Below are positions 3,031 to 19,997 of a DNA stretch of 19,997 nucleotides, piece after piece. Below the pieces are notes generated by a model. That model was given only the letters and a program-made list of their open reading frames with translations, was not told the origin of the DNA and ran no database searches. The first letter of the stretch is position 1; the number at the start of each line of letters is the position of its first letter. The position numbers and the translations under genes were made by a program. This stretch comes from a virus, in the UHGV virus genome UHGV-0061455. The stretch is one strand, 5' to 3'.

Positions 3031-3044
3031 CTTAAGGAAACAAT

Positions 3045-3344
3045 ATGGCTAAGGCGGCTACAAAGAGTCGCCTCGCTGAACTGCATAAGATGTTCACCGA
3101 GGTGCTTATTTCAGAATTGCAGCAGGCTAAGGATGAAGAAATCCCGATGCCTGCTGCAGATAAATCAGTTATCGCTAACTTCCTTAAGAGCAATAACATC
3201 ACAGCGGATGCAGACTCTACGGAGATGCAGGACCTGCGTGATGAGTTCCAAGATGAGTTAGCAGAGAAACGTAAAGCACGGGCGTCTGAATTACTAGCGA
3301 AAGCTGGTGCAGACCCTGAAGACCCTCTAGCAGGTATTCTATAA
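3045..3344 (+). CDS. Putative terminase small subunit (DNA maturase A)
   Basis: 99-aa highly charged, helical-looking protein directly upstream of the large terminase. Assignment by size and position only. Confidence 0.4.
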   Translation: MAKAATKSRLAELHKMFTEVLISELQQAKDEEIPMPAADKSVIANFLKSNNITADADSTEMQDLRDEFQDELAEKRKARASELLAKAGADPEDPLAGIL

Positions 3345-3661
3345 TGAAGGTAAAACTTAACCCTTACCCCGTTACAGTAGATATTGTATTTAACCGGGAC
3401 GATTTCATTAAGCGCTACAAGAAGGTTCGTGGGTATTCCCCTGATATCGAAGGTTGCGGTGGGATGACTTCTTACCTATCGAGCGATGATTTGCTCATAG
3501 GGGTATTCAATTCCAAAGTGGGTACGCTTGTGCATGAACTTAATCATGCCCTGATTCACACTATGGAGTACGTAGGGTTAAGTATTACACCTCAGACATC
3601 CGAGGCGTACTGCTACTTAATGGATAGCGTGCTGGAACAGGCGCTCCCTAAACTCAAATAA
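3344..3661 (+). CDS. Hypothetical protein with HExxH zinc-metallopeptidase-like motif
   Basis: 105-aa ORF whose ATG overlaps the upstream stop (ATAATGA). Contains VHELNHALIH (HExxH plus a third His 4 residues later) and an upstream GCGG segment. Family unknown. Confidence 0.5.
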   Translation: MKVKLNPYPVTVDIVFNRDDFIKRYKKVRGYSPDIEGCGGMTSYLSSDDLLIGVFNSKVGTLVHELNHALIHTMEYVGLSITPQTSEAYCYLMDSVLEQALPKLK

Positions 3662-3672
3662 AGGAAGATACG

Positions 3673-5496: not shown

Positions 5497-5504
5497 AAGG
5501 GGCA

Positions 5505-5900
5505 ATGGCCTCAATCATAGCAGCTAAGGATATTTCCAAGCAATATGAGATTGTAGGTAAATGCGAAGATACGTTCCGGCTGATAGGGTCTCGCTACCCT
5601 ATCGGCTTCAACGATAAGGCTAACATTGCAGAGAGTACTCTGTGGAACATGTCCTTACTGGCAATCTATCTCAAGGGGGAGGGCTACCCTGAATCCTTTG
5701 CTTCGGAGTACTTCGTCCGTGACGGGGAGCTTCAGGCGGAATTCGTACTATCCTTCCAAGAAGTAATCAACCTCGGCTACCAGCGCCTCAGTTCATGCTA
5801 CGGCAAGTTCGATGAAGCCCCCGGCACTGAGTTCGACGCAGCAATTCAACGTATGCAGGATGCGCTACGCGCAGCTACAGACGATATCAAAGACTATTAA
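5505..5900 (+). CDS. Hypothetical protein
   Basis: 131-aa ORF with GAAGGGG RBS, tightly packed after the terminase; no recognisable motif. Confidence 0.5.
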   Translation: MASIIAAKDISKQYEIVGKCEDTFRLIGSRYPIGFNDKANIAESTLWNMSLLAIYLKGEGYPESFASEYFVRDGELQAEFVLSFQEVINLGYQRLSSCYGKFDEAPGTEFDAAIQRMQDALRAATDDIKDY

Positions 5901-5910
5901 GGAGTTAATC

Positions 5911-6093
5911 ATGGCAGCAGCAAAAGCAACTCAGGCGCAGTTACAGGAACCTCTGCGCACAACTAACATCGTAGGCAAGGACTTGTACCAACTGCTTACT
6001 CAGCCTCAAGGCAAGGAGCAGGTAGGTCCGTCTATTGATGCGCTTATCTCGGCCCTGGAAGCCGCTGTAGCAGCAGTTAAAGCAGCAGCCTAA
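5911..6093 (+). CDS. Hypothetical small protein (Ala/Gln-rich, helical)
   Basis: ATG 5911 preceded by GGAG immediately after the upstream stop. The longer track ORF from 5812 overlaps the preceding gene and lacks an RBS, so the internal start is preferred. Confidence 0.4.
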   Translation: MAAAKATQAQLQEPLRTTNIVGKDLYQLLTQPQGKEQVGPSIDALISALEAAVAAVKAAA

Positions 6094-6506
6094 TGAAGTC
6101 ATTGGTCGCTGGGTTAATCCTCGCTACGGCTCTTACAGGCTGTTCAGCGACCTCTGCATTGACAGGTCTCATTGGCTCTAAGCCAGACCTGTCTGTGCAA
6201 GCTGGCGCAGAGAACACTAAACAAACTGTAGGCCTTAACGGCAAGTCCGACTCCAGCACGGACAACGAGACAACTATTAAAGATTCTAACGTAGGCACGC
6301 TGGATACTTCAACTAAGAAGCAGTCCAGTTCAGTTACTACTGGAACCATTAACACGGAGCGGGTACAGGTCGTAAACAATGACGGTACTAGCATAATTCT
6401 GGCAGGACTGGCAGGTGCAGCGGTTCCAATCGCAATCCTCATCATCGTCCTGTTGTTCCGCAAGCTCGGAAGAACTAAGGACGGGATCGATGAGTCTACC
6501 AATTAA
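6093..6506 (+). CDS. Putative unimolecular spanin (outer-membrane lipoprotein signal plus C-terminal transmembrane anchor)
   Basis: N-terminus MKSLVAGLILATALTGC has a signal peptide with LTGC lipobox; Ser/Thr-rich middle; C-terminal hydrophobic helix IILAGLAGAAVPIAILIIVLLF followed by basic residues. This topology matches T1 gp11-type u-spanins. ATG overlaps the upstream stop (TAATG). Confidence 0.55.
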   Translation: MKSLVAGLILATALTGCSATSALTGLIGSKPDLSVQAGAENTKQTVGLNGKSDSSTDNETTIKDSNVGTLDTSTKKQSSSVTTGTINTERVQVVNNDGTSIILAGLAGAAVPIAILIIVLLFRKLGRTKDGIDESTN

Positions 6507-6738
6507 CGGGGAAACTATCACCCGTGTAGGAACAAACGTATCTGTCGCTACTATGGGTGGCGGATGGATGGCAGACGTAATGTCTTGGAACTGGGGTACA
6601 ATCTCGTTCATCGTCGGTACGGTAATGGCTGTACTGACCTTCGCATGGAACGCGTACTACAAGCACAAAGAGTATAAGCTCAAGGAAAAGGCACTGGAGA
6701 AGGGGCTGGCATACTATAAGCATAAGCAACAAGGTTAA
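6490..6738 (+). CDS. Putative holin (possibly pinholin-like)
   Basis: 82 aa from ATG 6490. One strongly hydrophobic helix GTISFIVGTVMAVLTFAW preceded by a weaker hydrophobic segment, then a highly charged Lys-rich C-terminus. Sits immediately upstream of the endolysin. Confidence 0.45.
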   Translation: MSLPINGETITRVGTNVSVATMGGGWMADVMSWNWGTISFIVGTVMAVLTFAWNAYYKHKEYKLKEKALEKGLAYYKHKQQG

Positions 6739-6784
6739 AGCTGCACTGGCAGGGGCAACCCTGCTGGGCGGCAGTATCACTGCT

Positions 6785-7258
6785 GTGATTCAGCATAACG
6801 AGGGGTTGTCCCTGACGGCCTACAAAGATTCAGCCGGTGTACCTACCATCTGTTATGGTGAGACTAAAGGCGTACAGATAGGCCAGAAACGCACGCTAAC
6901 GCAATGTCAGGAGCAACTGATACGTTCGGCAGAGGGGCACGCTAAGGCGCTTGACGGCCTTCCTATGACGCTTACAGACGTACAGTTACTTGGCGCTCTG
7001 GACCTGACCTATAACATCGGTATCTCTGGATTCAAGAACAGTACAGTAAAGCGCAAGCTAATGCAAGGCGATACTAAAGGTGCCGCTCAGGCTGTCTTAG
7101 CGTGGCGCTACATCACCGTTAAAGGTAAGAAGTACGACTGTAGTATAGAAGGTAATAAGGTCTGCTACGGGCTCTGGAAGCGCCGTTTGTGGGAATCCCA
7201 AGCTATTGGCAACGAATTTAAATCAGTGCAAGCAGCATTAGCTGCTATTCCTAAGTAA
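6785..7258 (+). CDS. Endolysin, T4-lysozyme-like muramidase (glycoside hydrolase family 24), probably SAR-type with an N-terminal extension upstream of the listed start
   Basis: EGLSLTAYKDSAGVPTICYGET has the E-x8-D-x5-T catalytic spacing of T4/lambda/P22 lysozymes. The frame is open upstream to 6638 and encodes KVKAALAGATLLGGSITAVI, a Gly/Ala-rich hydrophobic stretch resembling a signal-arrest-release domain, but with no ATG/GTG/TTG in frame. Coordinates given are the conservative GTG start. Confidence 0.8.
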   Translation: MIQHNEGLSLTAYKDSAGVPTICYGETKGVQIGQKRTLTQCQEQLIRSAEGHAKALDGLPMTLTDVQLLGALDLTYNIGISGFKNSTVKRKLMQGDTKGAAQAVLAWRYITVKGKKYDCSIEGNKVCYGLWKRRLWESQAIGNEFKSVQAALAAIPK

Positions 7259-7267
7259 GGATTAGGT

Positions 7268-9013
7268 ATGACCCTAGTAAAGTTAGTTGAAGTAGAACTG
7301 GATACCTTGCACGTAGACCACTCTGGGTTAGTGCTTAATACGTACTTGAATGACAACGGGTACAACCTGCGTCAATGGGTAGACTCTGATGCAGCAGATG
7401 CACGAGAAGGAATGCAAGCTGCTATTGACTATATTGAGTCAGTTGGTGGAGGTACGTTAATTATCCCAGATGGTACTTGGATTCTTAACAGTATCAGTAC
7501 TGGCCCAGTGTCCGGGCACAGTGGACTCATTCAGCTTAAGAACAATGTAAGCATTAAGCTGGACGGTGTAGTTAAAGTAGGCCCTGCCTTAGCTAATAGT
7601 TCCTTCCAGGTCTTCGTCGGCTTCACTGATGCCAATCCAGCTAACTCTGGTAACTTGGACAACTGTCACATCTTTGGTGAAGGTAGCATTGACTTTGGAG
7701 GTTATGATTTTGCTGACTCAGGTCACTTGCGCAATGGTATCGCATTTGGTAAGGGGTATAACTGTTCAGTAGATGGCATTACGTTCATTAACGGTGACAT
7801 TACATGGGCTATAACACTTGGGTGGAACGGATATGGTTCAGACTCTTATGTCCGCAACTGCCGCTTCATTAACCTCATCCAAAGTAACGTGAACCGCGAC
7901 CATAGTACAGTGTACGTTAACTGCCCGTTCAGTGGGGTCACTGACTGCACCTTCCGCGCAAGCTCTGCGCGTGCCAAGGTAATAGCATGCACTGTGGAGT
8001 TACATCAACACGACACCTACTACCGCAATAGCAGCATCTCAGGATATACGCGTGGGTGCTATGTAGCGCTGCATGGTTCTGAGTCTGTTGGTGCAGGTAC
8101 GTACCTGTATAATGCCGAAGTCTCTGGGGTCATCGGAGATATCTCTGGTCAGGCCGTTATATTAGCTGCAGGCCCAGACGCTATAGCTACTACGCACATT
8201 CATGGCCTTACGGTATCTAACTGCCGGTTCACTGCTGGGAACTACCCGGGCATGTGCAGCTTCATTGACTTCTTCCAAGATGGTAACTCTGACTCAAGTC
8301 AGTACCTTATCAATCACGTTACGGTTAAGGGGTGCAGCTTCATCGTAGACCGCAGCCGTTCTCTTAGTGCAGCCATTACCCTGAACGGGAGTATTCAAGG
8401 TATCACCTTCCAGGATAACTTCTTCGATGTTAAGCAGGCTATGGTATCGGAACTCCCTAGCGGACGCACTGTGCAGTTAGAGCGCTTTAACTGGGATGCT
8501 AGCAATATCATCGGCGGCGATAACACTGGTACTCGTACTGGCCTGAACCTGTTTGAGACTCGGCGAGTATCCAGTATGTTGCGCTGTAACATTCAACTGC
8601 ATATGCGTCAGCCTAGTGTGGACCTGTACAGCTTTATGTACTTCCGTCCCGGTATCTCCTTCAGTGAGTGTACTATAGAGGTTCTACCTTACAACTGGGG
8701 TACTAGTTCAGGTAATGCACTGTTCTTTGAAGAGGGTGGCGTTCCTCCCCTGAACGTACATTGCAGCTTCCCTAAACAAGTATCTGTAACTCTCGCATCT
8801 GGTTCGAACGTGCAACGCGCTACGGTATCAGGTAACTACGCTTGGGTTGCCCGTGCAGACGCTCTGGATAGACGTGGTATTTCAGGTCAGTTCGATGCCC
8901 CTGCTAGTTACGCAGGTAGCAGCAACGGTCAGTTAACAGGCTTAGGTTGGCAGCTTGATGGGCTTCAACATACGTATGACCACAACGTGCTTCTTACAGG
9001 GCGCAGTAACTAA
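7268..9013 (+). CDS. Second tailspike, beta-helix polysaccharide depolymerase (pectate-lyase-3-like), no T7-type anchor domain
   Basis: 581 aa; AAGGA RBS. N-terminus DAREGMQAAIDYIESVGGGTLIIPDGTWIL resembles the start of pectate-lyase-fold phage depolymerases. Internal repeats (NCHIFGEGSIDF, NCRFINLIQSN, VTDCTFRAS, SNCRFTAG, KGCSFIVD) are typical beta-helix rungs. Confidence 0.75.
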   Translation: MTLVKLVEVELDTLHVDHSGLVLNTYLNDNGYNLRQWVDSDAADAREGMQAAIDYIESVGGGTLIIPDGTWILNSISTGPVSGHSGLIQLKNNVSIKLDGVVKVGPALANSSFQVFVGFTDANPANSGNLDNCHIFGEGSIDFGGYDFADSGHLRNGIAFGKGYNCSVDGITFINGDITWAITLGWNGYGSDSYVRNCRFINLIQSNVNRDHSTVYVNCPFSGVTDCTFRASSARAKVIACTVELHQHDTYYRNSSISGYTRGCYVALHGSESVGAGTYLYNAEVSGVIGDISGQAVILAAGPDAIATTHIHGLTVSNCRFTAGNYPGMCSFIDFFQDGNSDSSQYLINHVTVKGCSFIVDRSRSLSAAITLNGSIQGITFQDNFFDVKQAMVSELPSGRTVQLERFNWDASNIIGGDNTGTRTGLNLFETRRVSSMLRCNIQLHMRQPSVDLYSFMYFRPGISFSECTIEVLPYNWGTSSGNALFFEEGGVPPLNVHCSFPKQVSVTLASGSNVQRATVSGNYAWVARADALDRRGISGQFDAPASYAGSSNGQLTGLGWQLDGLQHTYDHNVLLTGRSN

Positions 9014-9466
9014 GTAATAAACCTGTGGGTGCCTGAGGGTGCCCTGGGATTTCCTGGGATTGCACGTGTAAACGTACACCTAGAAAATATTATACTCACG
9101 CGAGGCCCTCCCTCACCCGACCAAGGCGTCAATCCCCCCATGGGGTAGGCCTCTGGGAATTCACAGGGTGGGGTAGTGGGAGAGGGTGCTAATCCCTCTG
9201 CGTATACTGTGTGCTGCGCTAGACGCTCTGTATCGCTCTGTATCGCTCTGTATCGCTCTGTGAGTCTATAGCAGTACCTAAGGGACACTTCGTGTCTCTA
9301 CGCTGTACAAGGCAAGCCTCTGTGCTTCTCTGTGCTCTCTCTTATGAGGGCAGGAGGGGGCGCATGCTTGCCTATTTTTATGCACGCTGTGCAGTACTGT
9401 ATGCCGCTGCTATACCTCTGTGTATGCGCAGTAGCTTACCTCTTTTGCCTCTAGGCTATGCAATGC
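9014..9466. other. Non-coding genome-terminus or terminal-repeat-like region
   Basis: About 450 nt with no credible ORF between the last late gene and the first early promoter. Contains tandem short repeats, CTCTGT-type motifs, a CCCCATGGGG palindrome and C-rich/G-rich inverted arms. T7-like genomes have short repeat arrays next to their terminal repeats. Confidence 0.5.
9224..9261. repeat. Tandem repeat, about 3.8 copies of 10-bp unit CGCTCTGTAT
   Basis: Read directly: cgctctgtat cgctctgtat cgctctgtat cgctctgt. Related CTCTGTG motifs recur at about 9318-9345 and 9415. Confidence 0.9.
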
Positions 9467-9495
9467 TTGACGCAGGGTTAGCGCTGTGATATGCT
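9467..9495 (+). promoter_or_regulatory. Candidate sigma70-type early promoter P0 (TTGACG-N17-TATGCT)
   Basis: -35 TTGACG at 9467-9472, 17-nt spacer, -10 TATGCT at 9490-9495; about 100 nt upstream of the first early gene. Weaker -10 than the other promoters. Confidence 0.35.
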
Positions 9496-9601
9496 GATAG
9501 TAGTTGTAAGGTTCTTTAACAATCCGGGGAATCAACGACGCAGTGCAGCGAGTCACTACTCAACACTATATAGTAGGGGATATTGGAATACACTATGAAG
9601 G

Positions 9602-10576: not shown

Positions 10577-10605
10577 TTGACTTCCCTGATTTAAGCAGTT
10601 ATAGT
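10577..10605 (+). promoter_or_regulatory. Strong sigma70-type early promoter P1 (TTGACT-N17-TATAGT with A+T-rich upstream element)
   Basis: -35 TTGACT 10577-10582, exact 17-nt spacer, -10 TATAGT 10600-10605, preceded by aaattaatttaaaatagttg. Same architecture as P2 and P3a. Confidence 0.7.
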
Positions 10606-10629
10606 TCAAGCATAGTAAGGAGATGCAAA

Positions 10630-10770
10630 GGCAGCTGAAGGGGTAGCGGATAACCAAGACTACCCAGCCTAAAAGGACTTGAAGGACGTCGGTAACTGCA
10701 CCGCCTCTGCATCGAGGGAAGCAATGAGCTGCTAAGAGACAAAAGCAGCGCTAAGATGAATGTTCTTAGT
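10630..10770 (+). ncRNA. Conserved structured leader element, copy R1 of 3
   Basis: Begins about 18 nt after the predicted P1 start site. Conserved blocks GGCAGCTGAAGG, ATAACCAAGAC, AGCCTA-AAGGA, CTAAGAGACAA and GCTAAG are shared with R2 and R3. Hairpin A: GGGTAG (10641-10646) pairs with CTACCC (10660-10665) around a 13-nt loop. Hairpin C: CTAAG (10751-10755) pairs with CTTAG (10765-10769). The shared reading frame is broken by a stop in this copy. Confidence 0.5.
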
Positions 10771-10812
10771 TAAGCGTTACATCCTGTAGCGCATACTTAA
10801 GAGGATTTAAAT

Positions 10813-11127
10813 ATGAAGGCTTTAACTATCGTAATCTCCACGCTACTGATGACTGGATGCGCTACTAAGCAGTACCCACAAGCTACTGACCTTACTTTAC
10901 AGGAGCAGTCAGTGTTTGAATGCAAGGACGTACAGGTAGAATTAGCTAAGGCTTACAGTCAGAAGCTGAAGATTGATGAGACGGCAGGCTTCGATGCCGA
11001 AACTATCAGCGGATTCATGCTGGACTTTGGTATTGGTAATGCAATGGCTAAATCTAAGGCGTACGCTCAGGTTAACGGGCGTATCTCTAAACTGGAAGAA
11101 CTGAAGAAGGTGAGATGCAATGCGTAA
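10813..11127 (+). CDS. Early lipoprotein (signal peptide II with LMTGC lipobox)
   Basis: 104 aa; N-terminus MKALTIVISTLLMTGC is a classical lipoprotein signal. First gene after P1 and R1, with AAGAGG RBS. Confidence 0.7.
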   Translation: MKALTIVISTLLMTGCATKQYPQATDLTLQEQSVFECKDVQVELAKAYSQKLKIDETAGFDAETISGFMLDFGIGNAMAKSKAYAQVNGRISKLEELKKVRCNA

Positions 11128-11371
11128 CTTTAAATCTGAATTAAAAATCTGGTTCTCCGCTGCTGCTGTAGCTACTGCGCTGATGTTCTCCGTTAAGGGC
11201 GCTCAGGCTGCCCCTAACAGCATAGAACTGTGTAATTGGGGTAAGTGGGCGTGGCAGCAGAACATTAAGCTAGACGCGCTTGTAGACGCCTTAAACAGCG
11301 TTGAGGCTATGCCCTACGATGATAAGCTGATTGTTGTGCGCTGCTTTGTTGAATCTATGGAGACTATGTAA
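11120..11371 (+). CDS. Early secreted/periplasmic small protein (Sec signal peptide)
   Basis: 83 aa; N-terminus MRNFKSELKIWFSAAAVATALMFSVKGAQA-AP has a basic n-region, hydrophobic core and AQA cleavage motif. Start overlaps the end of the lipoprotein gene, suggesting translational coupling. Confidence 0.6.
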   Translation: MRNFKSELKIWFSAAAVATALMFSVKGAQAAPNSIELCNWGKWAWQQNIKLDALVDALNSVEAMPYDDKLIVVRCFVESMETM

Positions 11372-11547
11372 TGTTTGATTTAACTACTACGAACGAAGTG
11401 CAGACGATGACTAGCCGTGAGATTGCCGAGTTAACTGGTAAGATGCACACCCATGTAATTGCTGATATTCGTAAGATGCTGGCAGAGATTGGAGGAGAAA
11501 CGAAATTCCGCTCGTCCTACATATCGGCTCAAAATAAATTAAAATAA
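11371..11547 (+). CDS. Short Rha-like protein (phage regulatory protein Rha N-terminal DNA-binding domain only)
   Basis: 58-aa ORF below the track's size cutoff; ATG overlaps the upstream stop (TAATG). TSREIAELTGKMHTHVIADIRKM matches the signature N-terminus of Rha/antirepressor-type proteins. Its last codons are the A+T-rich upstream element of P2. Confidence 0.5.
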   Translation: MFDLTTTNEVQTMTSREIAELTGKMHTHVIADIRKMLAEIGGETKFRSSYISAQNKLK

Positions 11548-11550
11548 GTG

Positions 11551-11579
11551 TTGACGACGTACAGGGAAGTGCGTATAGT
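11551..11579 (+). promoter_or_regulatory. Strong sigma70-type early promoter P2 (TTGACG-N17-TATAGT)
   Basis: -35 TTGACG 11551-11556, 17-nt spacer, -10 TATAGT 11574-11579, preceded by aaaataaattaaaataagtg. Confidence 0.7.
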
Positions 11580-11636
11580 TCATTACATCGGGAGGCGAGA
11601 GGCACTAAGCACCTCCTCCCGGAAAGGAGAAGTTAA

Positions 11637-11775
11637 GGCAGCTGAAGGTAACGATGATAGCCAAGACGTTACAGCCTACAAGGAAGTGAACGAAATCCGA
11701 ACCCTACGGTCCCTGCAATCGGGAGAACTGGATGAGAAGCTAAGAGACAAGAGCTTCGCTAAGTGACTACTTAGT
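11637..11775 (+). ncRNA. Conserved structured leader element, copy R2 of 3
   Basis: Same conserved blocks as R1 and R3. Hairpin A: GTAACG (11648-11653) pairs with CGTTAC (11667-11672) around a 13-nt loop atgatagccaaga. Hairpin C: CTAAG (11759-11763) pairs with CTTAG (11770-11774). The 43 nt between element and ATG, including the AAGAGG RBS, are homologous to those after R1. Confidence 0.5.
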
Positions 11776-11817
11776 TAAGCGTCGTACAGTACGGCGCAGA
11801 ATTAAGAGGTTAAAGAA

Positions 11818-12237
11818 ATGAAAGCTACCCGTTCAAACTGGAAAGAAGCTAAAGGCCTGGTTAAGGTAACAACTAAAAGTATGCCTTGCCTTAAGACAGA
11901 AGCAGCACAAGACGAAGGTGCAGTTGCAATGGAACGTAAGCACGCCATGGAGCTTGCAGCGTACAACTCTGAAGCACGCCGTGCAGAGCTTGTAGAGCTG
12001 GCTAACAAGCCTGAAGGTACTGAAGCACGTAAGGTACTGCGTAAGATGCAGACCTTCACTACTAAGCCTCAGTCAATCCCCAGCAATGATTACAGCATGA
12101 AGCTCAGCCAGCGTCGTGCTAAATCTGAAGAATACAACGAGCGTGGCGAGCGTACTTGCCGCCCTTCAAGCAAGACCTGTCAGCGCATTAACAGTTATTT
12201 CCGCAGTAAGTCCTCTACACCTAAAGGAGTTAAATGA
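11818..12237 (+). CDS. Hypothetical early protein (basic, Lys/Arg-rich)
   Basis: 139-aa ORF with AAGAGG RBS; first gene after P2 and R2. Its first three codons match those of the lipoprotein gene after R1. Confidence 0.6.
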   Translation: MKATRSNWKEAKGLVKVTTKSMPCLKTEAAQDEGAVAMERKHAMELAAYNSEARRAELVELANKPEGTEARKVLRKMQTFTTKPQSIPSNDYSMKLSQRRAKSEEYNERGERTCRPSSKTCQRINSYFRSKSSTPKGVK

Positions 12238-12329
12238 TGGTGGGTCATACTAATCAATCTACTGAATGGGAACGTCAGCGTGAAGCTGAGATGTTTAAAC
12301 TGTATAAGGAGTTAACGAAATGGCACTGA
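12237..12329 (+). CDS. Possible small ORF (30 aa)
   Basis: AAGGAG RBS 7 nt upstream of ATG 12237; overlaps the start of the next gene. Small and unsupported beyond RBS and packing. Confidence 0.25.
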   Translation: MVGHTNQSTEWERQREAEMFKLYKELTKWH

Positions 12330-12643
12330 CCAAAGCCGCAGGCGACGTAGGTACTTATACCACAGCAGAGCAATCCGGTTGTTGTAAGGAAAATACTCAG
12401 TACAACGCCTGGAGGCCTCATTATGGGACACGCCAACCTGTTCCGGATGGGACTATGGTATTTATCCGGTATCGCTACGGGGAGCAGCCGAAGACTAGTG
12501 TAGACGCAAAAAATCGATTGTGGGTTTGGGATGGTACATACTCAGACATCGTGGAGTACAAGATTGACATACAGGAATGCAAGCATGAGCAGGTTGTGTA
12601 CGATGTGGATGACTTCCAGACACGATCGAAATGCGGGCGTTAG
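12320..12643 (+). CDS. Hypothetical early protein
   Basis: 107-aa ORF, AAGGAG RBS 8 nt upstream of ATG. Confidence 0.6.
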   Translation: MALTKAAGDVGTYTTAEQSGCCKENTQYNAWRPHYGTRQPVPDGTMVFIRYRYGEQPKTSVDAKNRLWVWDGTYSDIVEYKIDIQECKHEQVVYDVDDFQTRSKCGR

Positions 12644-12678
12644 CATCAGCAAACTTACTTCTACAAGAGAACGCAGAA

Positions 12679-12807
12679 ATGACACAGCATCAGAAAGCTC
12701 AGCAGTTGGCTAAGAACTACCACACTTTCCTGATTAACAACGAATGCAATGTGCGTTTCGCCTGGAACGCAGCAATGGCCCTTTTCAAACTGGAGATGCA
12801 GAAATGA
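12679..12807 (+). CDS. Possible small ORF (42 aa)
   Basis: ATG 12679; stop overlaps the start of the next gene (ATGA). Fills a gap in a tightly packed early operon. Confidence 0.25.
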   Translation: MTQHQKAQQLAKNYHTFLINNECNVRFAWNAAMALFKLEMQK

Positions 12808-12980
12808 TTAACCTGAACCCTGAACTGATTCTGATGCGTAATGATGAAGTAACTGTTGAGACGCTAGCCAAAGAATATGACGCTAGAGAACAGTTGATTG
12901 AGTACTACAAAGGTAAAGCTGAACGTGTAGGCCTCAGCTTCGAAAGCTACATTAAACGCTTCGGCATTACCTTACGCTAA
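12804..12980 (+). CDS. Hypothetical small early protein
   Basis: 58 aa from ATG 12804 with GGAG upstream; same frame as track ORF 12744-12980, whose upstream part lacks an RBS. Confidence 0.45.
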   Translation: MINLNPELILMRNDEVTVETLAKEYDAREQLIEYYKGKAERVGLSFESYIKRFGITLR

Positions 12981-12990
12981 GGGGGCAGAC

Positions 12991-13320
12991 ATGTTGCCAG
13001 TAAATGAAGTAATTGAACAGTACTGGCAGATGCTGGAGAATCAAAGCAGCTTAGGCCGTAAGACACTGCGAGATATTCCAGCAGAGCTACGCAAGCTTTG
13101 CCCTTTGAAGTGGTGTACTGATTGGCAGTACCGTGAAGGAATGCGCTTGCTGGTAGGTTATTACAAGTACGACGCTGAGAGGGCCTCAGAGGTCCTACAG
13201 CGTATGGAATTCGATGTAGTAAGAGAGTTGCAGCAGCTTGGATATGAAGGCGCTAAGCAGGCGTTTAAGGCTGCTTGCATTAATCATTATGAATGGCAGA
13301 CATCTTACAGAGGTATCTAA
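12991..13320 (+). CDS. Hypothetical early protein
   Basis: 109-aa ORF, AAGGGGG RBS. Confidence 0.6.
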   Translation: MLPVNEVIEQYWQMLENQSSLGRKTLRDIPAELRKLCPLKWCTDWQYREGMRLLVGYYKYDAERASEVLQRMEFDVVRELQQLGYEGAKQAFKAACINHYEWQTSYRGI

Positions 13321-13526
13321 TGAAAGTAAAAGCTATTAAAATTGAAGACTCGTCGGCTTTAGATTACCTGACTGAAGGTAAACTCTATGAGGTCGTATAT
13401 TGCTCCAATCGGAAATTTGGTGATTTAGTCCTAGATATAATTGACGATTTAGGCGAGATGATATCAATACTAGTTAGTGATGGGCCAAGCTGTGCTCACG
13501 GTGTTAAATGGGAGATTGTGGAATGA
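13320..13526 (+). CDS. Hypothetical small protein
   Basis: 68 aa from ATG 13320, which overlaps the upstream stop; same frame as track ORF 13293-13526. Confidence 0.45.
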   Translation: MKVKAIKIEDSSALDYLTEGKLYEVVYCSNRKFGDLVLDIIDDLGEMISILVSDGPSCAHGVKWEIVE

Positions 13527-13768
13527 ACTTCGTAGAACACAACCTAAAGATTTCAGATATAAAGTCTCAGAACTCGGCTATCTATAGGCTTGACCAGATG
13601 CATGGGGACAGTACTAATCCTAACGTAAGTACTGTATTCGTAACTAATGATGATATGCTGGAGCTAGTTGAATTATGGCTGAAGAACTGTGGCTACGGCG
13701 AGCGAGACAGTTGGGTGTTGGACAGACTGAAAGGTTTAGGTGTTGTGGTAGAACAGCAGCAGCTGTAA
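13523..13768 (+). CDS. Hypothetical small protein
   Basis: 81 aa from ATG 13523 (GTGGAATGA overlap with upstream stop). The 3' end overlaps the predicted primase start by about 94 nt, so one of the two boundaries is uncertain. Confidence 0.4.
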   Translation: MNFVEHNLKISDIKSQNSAIYRLDQMHGDSTNPNVSTVFVTNDDMLELVELWLKNCGYGERDSWVLDRLKGLGVVVEQQQL

Positions 13769-14463
13769 TAAGAAACGAGCCAGATAAATGGACATGCTCT
13801 TGCTTTAGATGTAAAGGTTATCACGTGGAGCGTAAGCAGTACGCTCAATTAGTAGTACCTGAAGTACTGGGGCGTGAGTTGCCCGCCCCTCAGGACCTGA
13901 AGCGCCTGCCGGAACTGGATGCAGGGCTTCAGCAGTTCCTTTACGGATTCTTAATATCAAAAGGTATCTGGCCTGATATGGCTGGAGATGTTTATTACTC
14001 AGAACAATACAAGAGGTTAGTGTGGAAATTATCAACGGGCAGTTACATAGCGAGAGCATTGCACGAGTACCAGTTTCCGAAGTGGGTGATGCTGGGGAAG
14101 TCGTTACAATGGGCGCAGCTTGGGAATACTGGAACGATAACAGTACTGACAGAGGATTATCTCTCGGCGCTGAAGGTTCAGCAGGTCTCGGAGAAGTATT
14201 CTTCACAGACTGTTACGGCAATAGCATTACTGGGGACTCGCTTAGCTCTTGGGCTTAAGGCTCAGCTGATACGAGAAGGGAAGCCTATAGTGTGCATGTT
14301 GGACGGAGACAAGGCAGGTTACGCTGGAACTGTTCAAATTCACAAACAGTTACGTCCATTTTTAAGGGTAGGCGACTTCCACATTGATGGGCTAGACCCC
14401 AAGGACATGAAGTGTAGTCAAATAATAGAAGGTATAGCAGATGAATTGGGAAGAGTATTATAA
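13675..14463 (+). CDS. DNA primase (zinc-binding region plus TOPRIM domain; T7 gp4 primase-like, separate from the helicase)
   Basis: 262 aa. Cys cluster RFRCCGRTAAAVIRNEPDKWTCSCFRC near the N-terminus; VCMLDGDKAGYAGT resembles the TOPRIM acidic motif (T7 MFDMDEAGRKA). Start is uncertain because of the upstream overlap. Confidence 0.65.
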   Translation: MAEELWLRRARQLGVGQTERFRCCGRTAAAVIRNEPDKWTCSCFRCKGYHVERKQYAQLVVPEVLGRELPAPQDLKRLPELDAGLQQFLYGFLISKGIWPDMAGDVYYSEQYKRLVWKLSTGSYIARALHEYQFPKWVMLGKSLQWAQLGNTGTITVLTEDYLSALKVQQVSEKYSSQTVTAIALLGTRLALGLKAQLIREGKPIVCMLDGDKAGYAGTVQIHKQLRPFLRVGDFHIDGLDPKDMKCSQIIEGIADELGRVL

Positions 14464-14586
14464 GTACGATGAAGAGGTTCCCTCAGGACTTGTTAGAATC
14501 AAAGCTGTAAAGGGTACTAGAGTGGGTACAGAAGACTAAGGTTGAGTTACATGGTGAATTTGCCAACTTAAAGTAAGGGGCATTGA

Positions 14587-15861
14587 ATGGATTTTGTAAT
14601 AGCTAGGGCTATGTGTGAACGTAAGGTGCATGACCGCTTACGGGACAGTATCCCTAAGTCACTGCTTGCGCCGGATACGGTAGCACTGCTAGGATGGATT
14701 GAACTGTATTATGCAACCTACCCTGACTCTAACGAAGTACGCTTTGATGTAATGGATACGCTCCTTAATATGCGTGGGGCGCATTTACAGAAGGAGCAGA
14801 TGGATATCCTTAAGCATATGCTTAAGACCGTTCAGGGCGTTCCTGATGAGGCGGTAGCTGGTACAGTGCGTACGCTGAACGAGCTGGCCTACTCGGGTGA
14901 GATGGCTGCACTGGTCAGTAAGTATCAGGCTGGGGAAGAGATTGACTTTGTACAGGAAGCTAAAGCGCTTGAGCGCAAGTACTCAGGCGTAGCAGCAGCC
15001 AATGATTCACTACTTAAGTGGGAAGATGGGGGTGTAGACGATATTCTCGCGGCTACTGATGAGTCTGGTGGTCTTAAGCTTACTGTGTTCAGTGAGTTGG
15101 CTAGAAACATTCGCGGCTTACGGGGTGGTGATTGTGTTGCTGTTGCTGCCCCTGTTGATGCTGGTAAAACTTCTCTCCTAGCTGCTATAGTAGTTAACCT
15201 AGCGGAACAGATGCATGAGCAGAAGGAGATTTACGCAGAGCGTCCTATCCTGTGGTTGGTGAACGAGTCATTGGCCAAGCGCACTGTACCGCGCATCTAT
15301 CAAGCAGCTACTGGACTTACCTTGCAGCAGATTGTTGAGCAGCATAAAGAAGGTAAGTTTGCTGATAAGTACCTGAAGAAGGTTGGGACTTGGGATAAGA
15401 TTCGCGTTAAGGATGCGCACAGTATGAGCCTAGGTCAAATCTCTACGCTATTGGAAGAGATGCGTCCGGCTGTGCTGGTGATTGACATGGTCGCTAATAT
15501 AAAGGGAGGTAATGCCGAGTCAGAGTATCAGGCATTGGAACAGAAGTGGCAGCAGCTGCGTATGCTGGGATGTGAATATGATTGCGTTATCTTAGGTACG
15601 ATTCAGTTATCTGTTGAAGGTTACGATTGCATGTACCCGCCGCTGACAGCATTGAAAGGAAGTAAGATAGGTGTTCAAGGTGCTTTGGACTTATGCATCA
15701 TGATGGGACGTATGAATGTTAACGATCGTCCTGACATGGCTAACGTACGCGGGATTAGTACACCTAAGAATAAGTTAGGTAAGTCTGGTAGTACTGCATA
15801 TGTGCAGTTCCAAGTGGAGTTTAACGGCGGTACGTGCCAATTCAGTGAAGGTCTAGCGTAA
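14587..15861 (+). CDS. Replicative DNA helicase (DnaB/gp4B-like)
   Basis: 424 aa; AAGGGG RBS. Walker A-like AAPVDAGKTS, Walker B-like hydrophobic stretch ending in D (AVLVIDMVA), and position directly after the primase. Confidence 0.8.
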   Translation: MDFVIARAMCERKVHDRLRDSIPKSLLAPDTVALLGWIELYYATYPDSNEVRFDVMDTLLNMRGAHLQKEQMDILKHMLKTVQGVPDEAVAGTVRTLNELAYSGEMAALVSKYQAGEEIDFVQEAKALERKYSGVAAANDSLLKWEDGGVDDILAATDESGGLKLTVFSELARNIRGLRGGDCVAVAAPVDAGKTSLLAAIVVNLAEQMHEQKEIYAERPILWLVNESLAKRTVPRIYQAATGLTLQQIVEQHKEGKFADKYLKKVGTWDKIRVKDAHSMSLGQISTLLEEMRPAVLVIDMVANIKGGNAESEYQALEQKWQQLRMLGCEYDCVILGTIQLSVEGYDCMYPPLTALKGSKIGVQGALDLCIMMGRMNVNDRPDMANVRGISTPKNKLGKSGSTAYVQFQVEFNGGTCQFSEGLA

Positions 15862-15916
15862 TAGCTAAGCCGTCTTCTTAGGAGGGCGGCTTGTCAATTA
15901 ACTAGGAGGATATTAA

Positions 15917-16381
15917 ATGAGCACTTGCATAGATCATGGTAAGTGTAAAAGCTTATCACCTGAAGGGTATTTATTAGTTACACGTCCTGAGTATTTCAGC
16001 AGAGGTTGTAAGACTAGAAGCATTGCTAAGCATAGGCTAGTACTTCTTACAAAGCTGGGTATAAACTGGTGGGATGAAGAGGCTAAGGATTTAGTAGCGC
16101 TCCACACTTGCGATAATCCTAGATGTATTAATCCCGAGCATCTGGTAGCAGGAACCCGTGGGGACAATAACAGAGATAGGGCAGAAAGAGGGAGAAGTGC
16201 TAAGAAGGTTCCTAGTAAGTGGAAGCTTACCCCTACTGATTGCAAAGCTATAATTAACTCTTATAACAAGAAAGATAGGGAGAATAACAAAAGCGCCTTA
16301 TCAGCACGTTTCAAAGTAGACCGTAAGATAATCACTCAAGTTTTAGAAGGAACATATAGTGGCCTCGATTTTAATCTTTGA
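15917..16381 (+). CDS. HNH homing endonuclease
   Basis: 154 aa; GGAGG RBS. HTCDNPRCINPEHLVAGTRGDNNRD matches the HNH_3-type motif. Gene is visibly more A+T-rich than the flanking helicase and polymerase genes. Confidence 0.8.
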   Translation: MSTCIDHGKCKSLSPEGYLLVTRPEYFSRGCKTRSIAKHRLVLLTKLGINWWDEEAKDLVALHTCDNPRCINPEHLVAGTRGDNNRDRAERGRSAKKVPSKWKLTPTDCKAIINSYNKKDRENNKSALSARFKVDRKIITQVLEGTYSGLDFNL

Positions 16382-17504
16382 TATTGAAACTCAAAACGTG
16401 CCTTACTTTGGAGGGGTAGCTACTCCGTACTGCCCTGAGAACTACATCGTAGAATCAGGGTTCAGGATTGATAGAACTAATCCAGATGGTACAGTAACGT
16501 GCAGTGATGTAGGCAGCGTACGTTATGAATCAAGAGAAGAGTTCTTGCAGGCAGACCCTAAGCAGTGGTTACCTATTCAGGAAGATACATGGTTAATCGT
16601 GGCCCATAACGCTGCGTATGAGATTAGCTGGGCACTGACGTTTGCTAGGGAAGAGTTTGAGGCATTCCTGAAAAGAGGTGGACGTGTATTTGATACAATG
16701 CAGGGGCAATACATCGCCTCTGACTTCCAAGACCTTTACCCGTCACTGGATGAGACGGCCCCCAAGTATGGTGGCAGTCACAAGGTTGATGGTGTTAAGC
16801 TGCTGTGGCAGCAGGGAGTATTAACAGCAGATATTGACCCAGTACTACTGCATGAGTACCTAACAGGGCCGGAAGGAGACATCGTCAATACTGCACTGTG
16901 CTTCTACGGGCAATGTGCATTGTTCGCTGAGCGTGGGCAGATGCCTATGGTCTGGGAAAGGATGGATAGTGTAGTAGCCCTAGCCTACTGTGAGTTTAAT
17001 GGTGTGTACGTAGACATGCCTACAGCCAGAGCTAACCAGAAGGAGCAGGAGGACGCTATCGCAGTACTGAAGCAGACTCTGCAAGGCTTCTTGCCGGAAC
17101 TACCTGAAGGCTTTGAGTTCAACTGGAACAGTGGATACCACATGTCCGCACTGGTGTATGGCGGTATGGTTAAGTACAAGTGCAAGGTCCCGTATGACCC
17201 GCCGAAGTATGTGAAGAAGGAAGTGCAGGATGGGGTATATAAGTCAGGCCGTAACAAGGGCATGCCTAAGTACATTAAAGTAGACACAGACGAGCAGGCT
17301 ATGAAGTGGGGCGAGCGTTTGTATAAGTTCGAAGGACTTGTATGTATTAAGGACCTGCCGGCAGTACTACAAGAGAAGTATGCGGAGCGAGGAGAGTTCC
17401 GAGGTGCTCAGACATTAGCAGACGGTACAGCTGTATTCAGTACAGGTACGGATGCTATGAAAGAACTGGCTAACTATTTTATTGGGATTGAAGACGATGA
17501 GTAA
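16359..17504 (+). CDS. DNA polymerase (family A), N-terminal fragment with 3'-5' exonuclease domain
   Basis: 381 aa from GTG 16359 (GAAGGA RBS 7 nt upstream), overlapping the HNH gene end. Exo I motif ILIFDIETQ and Exo II VAHNAAYEISWAL align with T7 gp5 (IVSDIEANA, VFHNGHKYDVPAL). ORF stops where the methyltransferase gene begins. Confidence 0.8.
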   Translation: MASILIFDIETQNVPYFGGVATPYCPENYIVESGFRIDRTNPDGTVTCSDVGSVRYESREEFLQADPKQWLPIQEDTWLIVAHNAAYEISWALTFAREEFEAFLKRGGRVFDTMQGQYIASDFQDLYPSLDETAPKYGGSHKVDGVKLLWQQGVLTADIDPVLLHEYLTGPEGDIVNTALCFYGQCALFAERGQMPMVWERMDSVVALAYCEFNGVYVDMPTARANQKEQEDAIAVLKQTLQGFLPELPEGFEFNWNSGYHMSALVYGGMVKYKCKVPYDPPKYVKKEVQDGVYKSGRNKGMPKYIKVDTDEQAMKWGERLYKFEGLVCIKDLPAVLQEKYAERGEFRGAQTLADGTAVFSTGTDAMKELANYFIGIEDDE

Positions 17505-18204
17505 TTTTATAAACATTATGCACGGTGACTGTCTGGAGTTGATGAAGGAAATTCCAGCTAAAAGTGTAGATATGGTACTTTGCGACTTACCTTATGGGAC
17601 TACTCAATGTAAATGGGATGTGATTATAGATTTTAAAATGTTATGGGAAAACTACGGTAGGGTAGTTAAGGATACGGGCGCTATAGTCCTAACGGCGGCG
17701 CAGCCGTTCACAAGTACGCTGGTAGTAAGTAATATTAAGAACTTCAAATATCAATGGGTTTGGAAGAAATCAAGACCTACAGGACATCTTAATGCTAAGA
17801 AGCAACCGTTACGGAACACTGAAGACATTCTCGTCTTCTATAAGTCGCAGTGTACGTATAATCCTCAAGGTACACGAGAAACAGACGTCATGGTGTCACG
17901 TACAAACAGGGGCAATTACGGGGAATGTTCAAAAACCACACGGCAGACGGTAACCGGTTACCCTACTACGATTCTGGAATTTGCATCTGAAGTAGGGGAA
18001 CACCCAACACAAAAGCCAGTCGCACTTATGGAGTATCTAATTCGTACATATACAAACGAAGGTGATACTGTTCTAGACAATTGCATGGGCAGTGGTACTA
18101 CGGGGGTAGCAGCTAAGAATACACTCCGTAATTTTATAGGTATCGAAAAGGATGCTACATACTACGATATAGCATTCAATCGCATTCATAATTCAAACGT
18201 GTAA
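17497..18204 (+). CDS. DNA methyltransferase (N6-adenine/N4-cytosine, beta-class)
   Basis: 235 aa from ATG 17497 (overlaps the Pol-N stop). N-terminus MSNFINIMHGDCLELMKEIPAKSVDMVLCDLPYG carries a DLPY variant of motif IV (DPPY). HPTQKP and DNCMGSGTTGVAAK...NFIGIEKD (motif I) are family signatures. Visibly A+T-rich versus neighbours. Confidence 0.85.
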   Translation: MSNFINIMHGDCLELMKEIPAKSVDMVLCDLPYGTTQCKWDVIIDFKMLWENYGRVVKDTGAIVLTAAQPFTSTLVVSNIKNFKYQWVWKKSRPTGHLNAKKQPLRNTEDILVFYKSQCTYNPQGTRETDVMVSRTNRGNYGECSKTTRQTVTGYPTTILEFASEVGEHPTQKPVALMEYLIRTYTNEGDTVLDNCMGSGTTGVAAKNTLRNFIGIEKDATYYDIAFNRIHNSNV

Positions 18205-18211
18205 GGTATGT

Positions 18212-19363
18212 ATGACTACTCAAGCGTCTTCATTCTTTAAAGCATACAACGAACTAACCCTGCGCCAGAAGGACTTAGGCTTCTATGAGGTTAAGGACTA
18301 CAACAAGGATGGTAGCCTGCGTAAGACTACGGGGATGCTTCCTTATGTAATACCTCAGAAGGAAGACGGTAGTGGCATCATTCATCACCGCCTGAATCAC
18401 TGTTCAACTACAACCGGGAGGCTGTCAGCGTCTAACCCGAATATGCAGCAGCTGCCGCGTGAGTCTAAGGTTAAGCAGATTCTTCGCAGTCGCTATGGTG
18501 AGCAGGGCATGATTGCACAGTGCGACTACTCAGCTATGGAAGTTGTAATGGGCTGTGTAATTACCGGTGATAAGAAGCTCCTGTCCCTGCTTGAAGATGG
18601 TACAGACATGCACTGCTACCGCTTAGCATTCCAAGAGGGTATGCCATATGAAGAAGTCTACGAGCTTTGCCATAACCCGGATGCACTGAACCATAAAGAA
18701 TGGAAGAAGAAACGAACAGCAATCAAAACGTTCAGCTTCGCAGCGCAGTACGGAGCTTCCGCTAAAGGATTGGCGTTCGCCTCTGGTGCCAGCCTGAAGG
18801 ATGCTGAGAAGTTCTTAGCTAACGAAGAAGCCCTGTTCCCTGAGTCTATTAAGTATCGCGATGTAATCGCAGCAGAAGTAAACCGCACTGCATTACTGGA
18901 ACCTATCCGTCGTGAGCAGTCAGATGACGGTAGCTGGCGTATCTACCGTGAGGGATACTTCACTGCACCTTGCGGTACTCGCTACCGCTTCCGTCAGAAA
19001 CCTGTGTGGCGTGAAGGGAAGCAGGTCATGGACTTCAAGCCTACAGAGATGGCGAACTATCCGTTTCAGGGCTCAGGTTCCCTGCTTATGCTGATTGCGA
19101 TGGGTATGATTCTGCGTGCAGGGTTAGCGGATAACTGGATGGACGGTAAGTGGTGCATCCTTGCCACTGTGCATGATGCCGTCTATGCAGATTGTGCAGA
19201 CGAAGAGACAGCTAATAAGGTAGGGCAACTTATCAAGCGCTGTATGGAAGGGGCACGCGACCGTATGCTAGCACTGTGGCCTGAGTTTGGTATCCTTAAA
19301 GATGTAAAGTTCCCAGCAGAAGCCGGGCTTGGTAAATCCTTCAAGGAAGAGTACACGATTTAA
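18212..19363 (+). CDS. DNA polymerase (family A), C-terminal fragment with polymerase domain
   Basis: 383 aa. TTTGRLSASNPNMQQLP (O-helix-preceding motif), DYSAMEV (motif A), RTAIKTFSFAAQYGAS (motif B) and VHDAV (motif C) match Pol I/T7 gp5. Confidence 0.85.
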   Translation: MTTQASSFFKAYNELTLRQKDLGFYEVKDYNKDGSLRKTTGMLPYVIPQKEDGSGIIHHRLNHCSTTTGRLSASNPNMQQLPRESKVKQILRSRYGEQGMIAQCDYSAMEVVMGCVITGDKKLLSLLEDGTDMHCYRLAFQEGMPYEEVYELCHNPDALNHKEWKKKRTAIKTFSFAAQYGASAKGLAFASGASLKDAEKFLANEEALFPESIKYRDVIAAEVNRTALLEPIRREQSDDGSWRIYREGYFTAPCGTRYRFRQKPVWREGKQVMDFKPTEMANYPFQGSGSLLMLIAMGMILRAGLADNWMDGKWCILATVHDAVYADCADEETANKVGQLIKRCMEGARDRMLALWPEFGILKDVKFPAEAGLGKSFKEEYTI

Positions 19364-19375
19364 TTAAATTAGTTG

Positions 19376-19404
19376 TTGACATGGCAAGGACGCCTAGGTA
19401 TAGT
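19376..19404 (+). promoter_or_regulatory. Strong sigma70-type promoter P3a (TTGACA-N17-TATAGT)
   Basis: -35 TTGACA 19376-19381, 17-nt spacer, -10 TATAGT 19399-19404, preceded by taattaaattagttg; immediately after the DNA polymerase stop. Confidence 0.7.
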
Positions 19405-19491
19405 AAGCACATCAACGAGGCACGGAGCCTACCAGAAACGGTCAGTAGACGCAGCGTCATACGAAGAGCTGATAAGTTGATAAGAAACAGA

Positions 19492-19520
19492 TTGACAGGC
19501 AGTAACGAAGTAGATAATAT
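19492..19520 (+). promoter_or_regulatory. Candidate tandem promoter P3b (TTGACA-N17-TAATAT)
   Basis: -35 TTGACA 19492-19497, 17-nt spacer, -10 TAATAT 19515-19520. Predicted start lies about 15 nt upstream of R3, matching the P1-to-R1 spacing. Confidence 0.4.
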
Positions 19521-19541
19521 ACACATCAAGGAAGCAGTACT

Positions 19542-19682
19542 GGCAACTGAAGGTAGCGCTGATAACCAAGACGCTATAGCCAACAAGGAAGTGAACGCCC
19601 TCGGCTACGTCGCCGTCCCTGTATCGGGAGAAGACATGAGAGTCTAGGAGAAATAAGACTCGCTAACTGAAGTAGAGTTAGT
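19542..19682 (+). ncRNA. Conserved structured leader element, copy R3 of 3
   Basis: Same conserved blocks (GGCAACTGAAGG, ATAACCAAGAC, AGCCAACAAGGAAGTGAACG). Hairpin A: GTAGCG (19553-19558) pairs with CGCTAT (19572-19577, one G-U) around a 13-nt loop. Hairpin C: CTAAC (19663-19667) pairs with GTTAG (19677-19681), a compensatory change relative to R1 and R2. Confidence 0.5.
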
Positions 19683-19742
19683 GATGCAGTCTTAAGAGAT
19701 TGCAACCTTAACTTTATTCACAGTATTAACAGGAGGTAGTAA

Positions 19743-19925: not shown

Positions 19926-19997
19926 GTGTAGCCCTGCGTAGGAAGGGTTTTATTATACCACTTAACGCTCAATTTGTACAGCAATAAATTGATATTT

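Follow-up and report, generated by a model that had tools for sequence, protein, structure and literature searches.

A family of modular, structured leader RNAs behind host-type promoters in a small clade of coliphages

The viral DNA UHGV-0061455 was analysed as a stretch of 19,997 nucleotides (nt), referred to here as the window. It carries three paralogous copies of a structured RNA element (R1, R2 and R3), each lying on the plus strand behind a host-type sigma70 promoter and ending at the start codon of the following gene. These elements, of which each genome has three, make up a real and undescribed family of modular leader RNAs in which a 5' domain of covarying hairpins adjoins a 3' part where two structures compete for one segment. 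In general kind they belong with the leaders of phage early mRNAs. The window is part of a ~43-kb podophage genome of the Slopekvirinae (Autographivirales, KP34/phiKMV-like), a coliphage. Its closest records are the ECO104 4-5-2 wastewater isolates, which are without annotation and share ~90% identity; the Escherichia phages PAS7 and P64441 are remoter kin, and the metagenome contig UMAM01049034.1 is identical to the window across R1 and R2.

The original prediction, made from the letters of the window alone, placed three copies of a ~140-nt element at 10630-10770, 11637-11775 and 19542-19682. A repeat search, an alignment and a covariance model all recovered the copies at these positions. The model's matches number exactly three in the window and likewise three in every complete relative, with scores of 142-165 bits and E-values of ~1e-38 to 1e-44. 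The ~140 nt stood as a core but not as a length: because homology continues to the start codons of the downstream genes, the element is longer than first claimed and runs for ~200 nt in each case (Table 1). Homology stops at the start codon, and the genes beyond it vary among phages.

A near-consensus sigma70 promoter had been proposed ahead of each copy, and promoters P1, P2, P3a and P3b are the top four plus-strand sigma70-like sites of the window. Promoter-like sites in the window as a whole show no excess, totalling 20 compared with 27 by shuffling. The leader promoters and an A/T-rich stretch upstream of them are conserved in all relatives. P3a is followed by a conserved stretch of ~85 nt before P3b, in which no significant fold was detected (z -0.35). 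Transcription of R1 would start at about 10612, ~7 nt 3' of the -10 hexamer. The distance from the -10 hexamer to the conserved GGCAGCUGAAGG block is 25 nt in R1, 58 nt in R2 and 22 nt in R3; the 15-50 nt first given for the promoter distance therefore describes R1 and R3, while R2 falls slightly outside it. The proposed placement at the head of early operons does not strictly hold for R3, which is outside the early region proper and follows the DNA polymerase gene in the middle region.

The fold was assessed in a MAFFT alignment of nine copies sharing one kind of 5' domain (type I; three sites in each of three phages). Orthologues in this set are 82-97% identical, except for the R2 pair with the Ga0129314 contig (66-76%), and paralogues are 61-70% identical. 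Across four hairpins, termed A, B1, B2 and D, 96.7% of alignment cells are paired, compared with 33-48% when the partners are slid, and 13 of the 20 pairs have changed on both sides; none of 500 shuffles reached such values. Hairpin A occurs with four different stems (GGGUAG/CUACCC, GUAACG/CGUUAC, GUAGCG/CGCUAU and GCGGUG/CACCGU) around the conserved loop GAUA(A/G)CCAAGA, which bears out the stems, the loop and the compensatory changes first described for it. Six differing stems of 3-4 base pairs (bp) form B1 among the copies, B2 is either CCUC/GAGG or UCCC/GGGA, and D has five differing 6-bp stems. The few unpaired cells in B1 and B2 are due to the R2 row being misregistered by 1 nt in the MAFFT alignment. 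Both hairpins originally put forward as covarying do so, but the set was incomplete, since B1, B2, D and a long hairpin containing the Shine-Dalgarno sequence had been overlooked.

R2 alone possesses an extra 5'-terminal hairpin, which is replaced by a different hairpin in its Ga0129314 orthologue. A long-range helix in the minimum-energy fold of R1 is not conserved, and inspection of the type I copies revealed neither a conserved pseudoknot nor a closing helix. Unpaired columns of the core are invariant in 56% of cases and paired columns in 22%, a difference that points to sequence-specific reading of the single strands and loops. In base composition the leaders are only slightly purine-richer than the genome.

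The loop of hairpin D in R1, AAGAGACAAA, resembles the Shine-Dalgarno sequence of the following gene; in R3 the loop contains AGGAGA and the gene uses AGGAGG. Several further motif resemblances were considered and rejected. Enrichment of CsrA-like GGA motifs, Shine-Dalgarno-like sites or standby sites was not significant against dinucleotide shuffles, the ops resemblance of hairpin A sits in a stem that varies between copies, and the hammerhead-like CUGAAG stands where the remaining catalytic core is absent. As a separate observation, the AUG of the conserved AUGAG linker lies 6-8 nt 3' of GAGGG or GGGAG (10724-10735; 11732-11743; 19636-19647) and opens a three-codon mini open reading frame (ORF), reading MSC and a stop from the AUG at 10724 in R1. 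In 12 of 15 copies its stop (UAA, UAG or UGA) falls in the loop of hairpin D. The exceptions are ECO104 R3, with 15 codons, P64441-1, with 7 codons, and P64441-3, where AUA replaces AUG.

The copies do not behave as coding sequence, as had been argued in part from an in-frame stop in R1. That stop is present, and most of the nine copies contain stops in all three frames. A single frame stays open over the greater part of R2 and R3; it is broken in all R1 copies, a 1-nt deletion breaks it in one R2 orthologue, and it has no start codon within the transcript. A protein-coding reading was ruled out by these stops and frameshifts. Together with the covariation and an asymmetry of G-U pairs described below, they uphold the initial view of a structured RNA and assign it to the plus strand behind the host-type promoters.

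The 3' part of the leader holds two mutually exclusive structures. The first, hairpin E, is the 'hairpin C' of the original prediction, and its pairing is as then described (GCUAAG/CUUAGU in R1 and R2, GCUAAC/GUUAGU in R3); it is one arm of the alternative. The second, for which we reserve the name hairpin C, is a long bipartite hairpin: its inner stem measures 7-9 bp and its outer stem 7-12 bp, and a 2x2 internal loop separates the two. Its layout is 12 + 8 bp around the 2x2 loop, or 5 + 7 + 2 + 8 bp in R1. It has ~20-25 stacked positions and ends 4-10 nt 5' of the start codon. Among 10 distinct copies, 93.8% of hairpin C is paired, compared with 39-46% when slid, and half of its pairs (10/20) have changed on both sides. 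One pair is invariably G-U and G-U is common at three more; as G-U pairs become A-C mismatches on the opposite strand, the plus strand is the folding strand.

In R1 the outer stem of hairpin C pairs with the Shine-Dalgarno sequence AAGAGG (10799-10804). Hairpin E and this outer stem share the CUUAGU segment, so that only one of them can form at a time. Two-state folding was performed with the 3' arm of C blocked, and figures were obtained from nine of the 11 copies folded. In these nine, the long hairpin is favoured by only 3-9 kcal/mol over the state in which E and the inner stem of C form and the Shine-Dalgarno sequence is free. Hairpin E is complete before the 3' arm of C is transcribed.

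Table 1. Positions of the promoters, leaders, hairpins and gene blocks in the window.
Feature	Position	Strand	Detail
Promoter P1	10577..10605	+	TTGACT-17-TATAGT, A/T-rich stretch upstream; 10/12; same place in relatives
Promoter P2	11551..11579	+	TTGACG-17-TATAGT; 10/12; conserved in relatives
Promoter P3a	19376..19404	+	TTGACA-17-TATAGT; 11/12; conserved in relatives
Promoter P3b	19492..19520	+	TTGACA-17-TAATAT; 10/12; immediately 5' of R3
Leader R1	10612..10812	+	start codon 10813; covariance model 164 bits
R1 conserved block	10630-10641		GGCAGCUGAAGG
R1 hairpin A	10641..10665	+	GGGUAG/CUACCC, loop CGGAUAACCAAGA; arms 10641-10646/10660-10665; 100% paired; 4/6 pairs changed on both sides
R1 hairpin A loop			GAUAACCAAGA
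Linker 3' of hairpin A			AGCCUA-AAGGA...
R1 hairpin B1	10690-10703	+	CGGU/ACCG; helix covariation
R1 hairpin B2	10704-10717	+	CCUC/GAGG; helix covariation
R1 AUGAG linker	from 10724	+	conserved
R1 hairpin D	10728-10749	+	GCUGCU/AGCAGC, Shine-Dalgarno-like loop AAGAGACAAA; 5/6 pairs changed on both sides
R1 hairpin E	10750..10770	+	GCUAAGA/UCUUAGU; R3-type copies show a single compensatory change, G-C to C-G
R1 long bipartite hairpin C	10757..10809	+	inner stem GCGUUAC/GUAGCGC
Leader R2	11586-11817	+	start codon 11818; Shine-Dalgarno 11804-11809
R2 extra 5'-terminal hairpin	11590..11620	+	GGGAGG...CCUCCUCCC; R2 only
R2 hairpin A	11648-11672	+	arms 11648-11653/11667-11672
R2 hairpin B1	11697-11709	+	
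R2 hairpin B2	11710-11724	+	
R2 hairpin D	11736-11757	+	
R2 hairpin E	11758-11775	+	
R2 hairpin C	11764-11812	+	
Leader R3	19527-19742	+	start codon 19743; free Shine-Dalgarno AGGAGG 19731-19736; fold z -3.09
R3 hairpin A	19553-19577	+	arms 19553-19558/19572-19577
R3 hairpin B1	19602-19615	+	
R3 hairpin B2	19616-19629	+	
R3 hairpin D	19640-19661	+	loop AGGAGAAAUA
R3 hairpin E	19662-19682	+	GCUAAC/GUUAGU
R3 long hairpin	19671-19718	+	diverged, holds UUAACUUUA; 24.6 bits to hairpin C model
Late genes	1-9013		
Early genes	begin 3' of 9013-9600		9013-9600 is a non-coding stretch
Primase, helicase, split DNA polymerase	13.7-19.4 kb		

Comparison with sister phages revealed the modular construction of the leaders. 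The promoters are retained in PAS7, P64441 and two IMG/VR contigs, as is the D/E/C part at two of the three sites, and an unrelated but equally structured 5' domain (type II) replaces type I. The 5' domain has thus been exchanged as a unit with the promoter and D/E/C kept, which makes the leader modular. Type II comprises three covarying hairpins and a possible H-type pseudoknot, as read by eye in nine copies with no formal score. Global alignments of type I with type II 5' domains gave z = 0.5-3.3, values barely over shuffles and inflated by the shared 3' end. Homology between the two types was rejected; only the short motifs AGC(C)AAGACGUUA, CUGAAG and GAUAA in loops are common to both. Within each genome all leaders share one type, although the paralogues are old, and this could reflect co-adaptation to a single partner. 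No gene specific to type I or to type II phages was found.

The leaders match no named family, as had been supposed: Rfam 15 yielded nothing at gathering scores and only noise over the leaders at E <= 10. Searches with two covariance models detected no homologue in HK022, T7, KP34, Buco or KKP 3828. Comparable repeats are absent from the early regions of KP34, Buco and KKP 3828, and we therefore regard the family as restricted to one small E. coli phage clade. A pattern scan of a viral collection for the 3' module returned three contigs, all of this clade, a metagenome scan returned only UMAM01049034.1 and one contig already known, and two further viral scans gave chance matches only. As these scans added no new members, the family is confined to about seven genomes.

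Repeated cassettes of this sort bring to mind the PeSL of T4-type phages, which are short promoter-terminator composites in myoviruses (PMC2839356, PMC4122927). In both cases repeated early-promoter stem-loop cassettes flank variable genes and mark the ends of rearrangements, here that of a truncated Rha gene which ends at P2. The leaders differ in being ~200 nt long, in lying 3' of the promoter and in possessing a multi-hairpin fold and a ribosome binding site; furthermore, no terminator stands 5' of P1 or P2, unlike in the PeSL composite. We consider it very improbable that the copies are mere PeSL-like recombination or expression cassettes without a function of the RNA fold, or that they encode small paralogous peptides. 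The variation among phages of the genes behind the cassettes, the cutting of the Rha-like gene exactly at the P2 cassette and the frame open over most of R2 and R3 would all suit such an account; the compensatory changes in five helices and the invariant loops, however, signify selection on the RNA fold, and the open frame is interrupted and lacks a start codon as described above. The Rha-type remnant (11371-11547) is a 58-codon ORF that retains the N-terminal part of a Rha/Ant-type regulator (PF09669) and stops within the P2 upstream element. In PAS7 the gene is full length at 251 codons, and the truncation has the appearance of a deletion that ended at the P2 promoter cassette.

For the action of the leaders we favour, with a probability of roughly 0.4, a reading in which the 3' part is a two-state platform with an RNase III-sized hairpin that governs access to the Shine-Dalgarno sequence and maybe severs the leader, the 5' domain serving as a binding module. 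Each copy would be the untranslated 5' leader of an operon transcribed by host RNA polymerase. Its 5' domain, in which A, B1 and B2 are joined by highly conserved purine-rich single strands, would bind a protein or other partner; its 3' platform would consist of hairpin D with the Shine-Dalgarno-like loop, hairpin E and the long bipartite hairpin C. E would form first and leave the ribosome binding site free, and in the more stable state C would pair with the Shine-Dalgarno sequence of R1- and R2-type copies and bury the site. Cutting of C by RNase III would make the ribosome binding site accessible and release a ~170-nt leader RNA that ends in a 3' hairpin and would be stable. Expression would accordingly proceed through the early-forming E conformer or through RNase III cutting.

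In T7 0.3 and lambda N, cutting by RNase III exposes the ribosome binding site and thereby boosts translation. The E. coli enzyme reads ~24 duplex positions (PMC6212723), and hairpin C has the T7-type layout: it spans about two helical turns, is interrupted by an internal loop and is placed just 5' of the next ribosome binding site. A T7-type RNase III site was among the roles first suggested for the element. The architecture of the long 3' hairpin agrees with that suggestion; hairpin A does not fit it, and sequence homology to T7 sites is lacking. Both systems occur in T7-like podophages with strong left-end host promoters, and T7 sites, like C, fold as an upper stem, an internal loop and a lower stem before the next gene. 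In T7, however, a single site serves promoters A1-A3, whereas each promoter here has its own leader; hairpins A, B1, B2, D and E have no counterpart in T7, and the internal loop of hairpin C is small and symmetrical. The hairpin C model retrieved nothing from T7 at E <= 5. R1 hairpin A (GTAGCGGATAACCAAGAC, 10643-10660) and T7 R0.3 (TAGCGGATAACTCAAGG, 853-870) have the 11-nt UAGCGGAUAAC in common, a match that is probably due to chance as it lies partly in the copy-variable stem. Elsewhere in the window, a ~21-bp bipartite hairpin (15863-15919) stands directly 5' of the Shine-Dalgarno sequence AGGAGG of an HNH-type gene (15917); it matches the hairpin C model weakly (17.4 bits, E = 0.21) and may be a further processing site.

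A number of observations weigh against the RNase III-governed platform. Hairpin C and the RNase III sites of T7 have no sequence in common, and the T7 consensus (ACUCAAGG ... CCUUUAUGAU) is absent from the hairpin. Only one compensatory event supports hairpin E. Sequestration is not universal, since the long hairpin of R3-type copies does not include the true Shine-Dalgarno sequence, and Shine-Dalgarno-like sites are not significantly enriched in the leaders over shuffles. The type II leader of the middle site (PAS7 2990-3158) is without D/E/C and has another bipartite hairpin; it also contains a 19-codon upstream ORF (MKVVLQSLLRRASIKPLRR, PAS7 3097-3156) that stops 2 nt before the main start. 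Moreover, start sites, processing and expression are inferred throughout, and the favoured reading is silent on the specific action of the 5' domain, the part that was originally flagged.

That domain is the focus of another view, namely that the 5' domains are interchangeable modules of a new class which act on a host machine, either reprogramming the elongating RNA polymerase with no similarity to put or, once released by RNase III, serving as abundant decoys for a host RNA-binding or defence factor. We hold this to be doubtful. Somewhat less probable still is a put-like antiterminator or anti-pausing RNA acting in cis, whose nascent 5' domain would bind the elongating host RNA polymerase and let it pass terminators and Rho along the long early and middle operons as far as the phage RNA polymerase gene. 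The putL and putR elements of HK022 are paralogous and show compensatory stem changes and conserved unpaired bases (PMC9378689), and the leaders resemble them on each of these counts. In both instances paralogous structured RNAs follow the early host promoters of a coliphage with no dedicated phage protein evident (PMC9378689), and one leader stands behind each host-type promoter with none elsewhere. Further points in favour are the length of the operon after R2 (~7.5 kb) and a PAS7 copy which, like putR, follows a small ORF and stands ~270 nt away from the promoter. The one plausible terminator-like hairpin with a U run (plus strand, 19930-19949, within 19926-19985) also follows the 60-codon gene behind R3, with an equivalent at 10783-10802 in PAS7, and precedes genes leading to the phage RNA polymerase.

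The comparison with put nevertheless breaks down in several respects. The put elements have two stems in ~70 nt, whereas the leaders have five or six helices (five hairpins in type I) in ~180-200 nt, end at the start codon and pair with the Shine-Dalgarno sequence; no downstream terminators in need of suppression have been demonstrated for them. The leader model found no put homology in HK022, its best match there (8.3 bits, E = 3, 37199-37305) being far from the put regions, and terminator-like sites downstream show no excess over shuffle expectation (11 vs 12.8; 17 vs 14.4). Antitermination would additionally leave the D/E/C platform, the Shine-Dalgarno pairing and the end of homology at the start codon unexplained. 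Of the roles offered in the original prediction none found confirmation, and for the put- or nut-like one position alone is in keeping. A lambda nut site was likewise rejected, as boxA (CGCUCUUA or UGCUCUUUAACAA) with boxB is not conserved. A boxA-like UGCUCUUA occurs in two copies (PAS7-1 and Ga0129314 R1), R1 having UGUUCUUA and R2 CUACUUA at this place, and the resemblance is explained by the role of this segment as pairing strand for the Shine-Dalgarno sequence. The T7 early leader carries a boxA (CGCTCTTTAACAA, 812-824). A minus-strand sigma70-like site (19980-19952) overlaps the terminator-like hairpin at 19930-19949, and the late regions of relatives contain this promoter, with a AAAACCCTTCC motif, in the plus orientation (ECO104 25697, PAS7 30596).

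A further reading, compatible with the favoured one, is that the leader is mainly the precursor of an abundant trans-acting small RNA (sRNA) that, once processed, would titrate or redirect a host factor early in infection, for instance an RNA chaperone, a nuclease or a defence sensor. In its favour, three related RNAs would come from three strong promoters, a sequence-specific partner is suggested by the conserved loops and single strands, the released leader would be stabilised by a hairpin at its 3' end, and phages exchange the 5' domain as one piece. Non-coding RNA candidates derived from 5' untranslated regions (5'UTRs) have been described in lytic phages including phiKZ and the phiKMV-like LUZ19 (PMC10914365). 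Those candidates are also short, structured, genus-conserved RNAs from operon 5'UTRs; they were found via transcript ends and premature termination, whereas the present leaders have strong comparative evidence for a fold and no internal terminator. Against an sRNA, the phage genome holds no antisense complement to the conserved motifs elsewhere, a search of complete E. coli genomes for host mimicry recovered no sequence similar to the leaders, and the resemblance to CsrA sites and the number of Shine-Dalgarno-like sites are within the expectation from base composition. We judge this reading unlikely.

The competing structures might also suggest a riboswitch-like sensor, in which the 5' domain, as an aptamer recognising a small molecule or an ion, would decide whether E or C forms. 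In keeping with this, the conserved multi-helix domain precedes a platform whose two structures exclude each other, conservation is high at unpaired positions, and two unrelated 5' domains are found on the same platform. Conversely, the 5' domain and the switching segment are not linked by any helix and have hairpin D between them, and the inspection described above disclosed no conserved pseudoknot or closing helix; there is no Rfam riboswitch match even at E = 10, and the family is limited to about seven phage genomes. The chance of such a sensor seems slight.

Very little is known of how phiKMV/KP34-like phages control the genes read by the host polymerase in the first minutes of infection, and it is exactly at these control points that an RNA fold not previously described is found three times per genome. 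The type I and type II 5' domains amount to a natural swap experiment, and the two-state platform is amenable to reporter fusions. Were the platform an RNase III-dependent switch, it would represent a compact, portable natural expression cassette; were the 5' domain to bind the polymerase or a host factor, it would be a new kind of phage RNA effector. The general importance of the family is uncertain, as it is narrow, with about seven genomes.

Other features of the window and its relatives were noted in passing. The stretch at 9013-9600, between the late and early genes, is G+C-rich and contains the strongest local fold of the window (9309-9372, -37 kcal/mol). It has CCCTCACCCGACCAA in common with the PAS7 end region and is probably a genome terminus or terminal repeat. 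A search for tRNA and tmRNA found none. An N6/N4 DNA methylase gene (PF01555) occupies 17482-18204 between the two halves of the DNA polymerase gene; at the corresponding place ECO104 has a group I intron (3356-4042; Rfam RF00028), and a second such intron lies in its late region (31551-31804; Rfam RF00028). Finally, PAS7 carries a plus-strand pentapeptide-repeat gene at 10868-11400, where its record annotates the opposite strand as 'modular polyketide synthase'; the P64441 homologue of this gene is correctly annotated.

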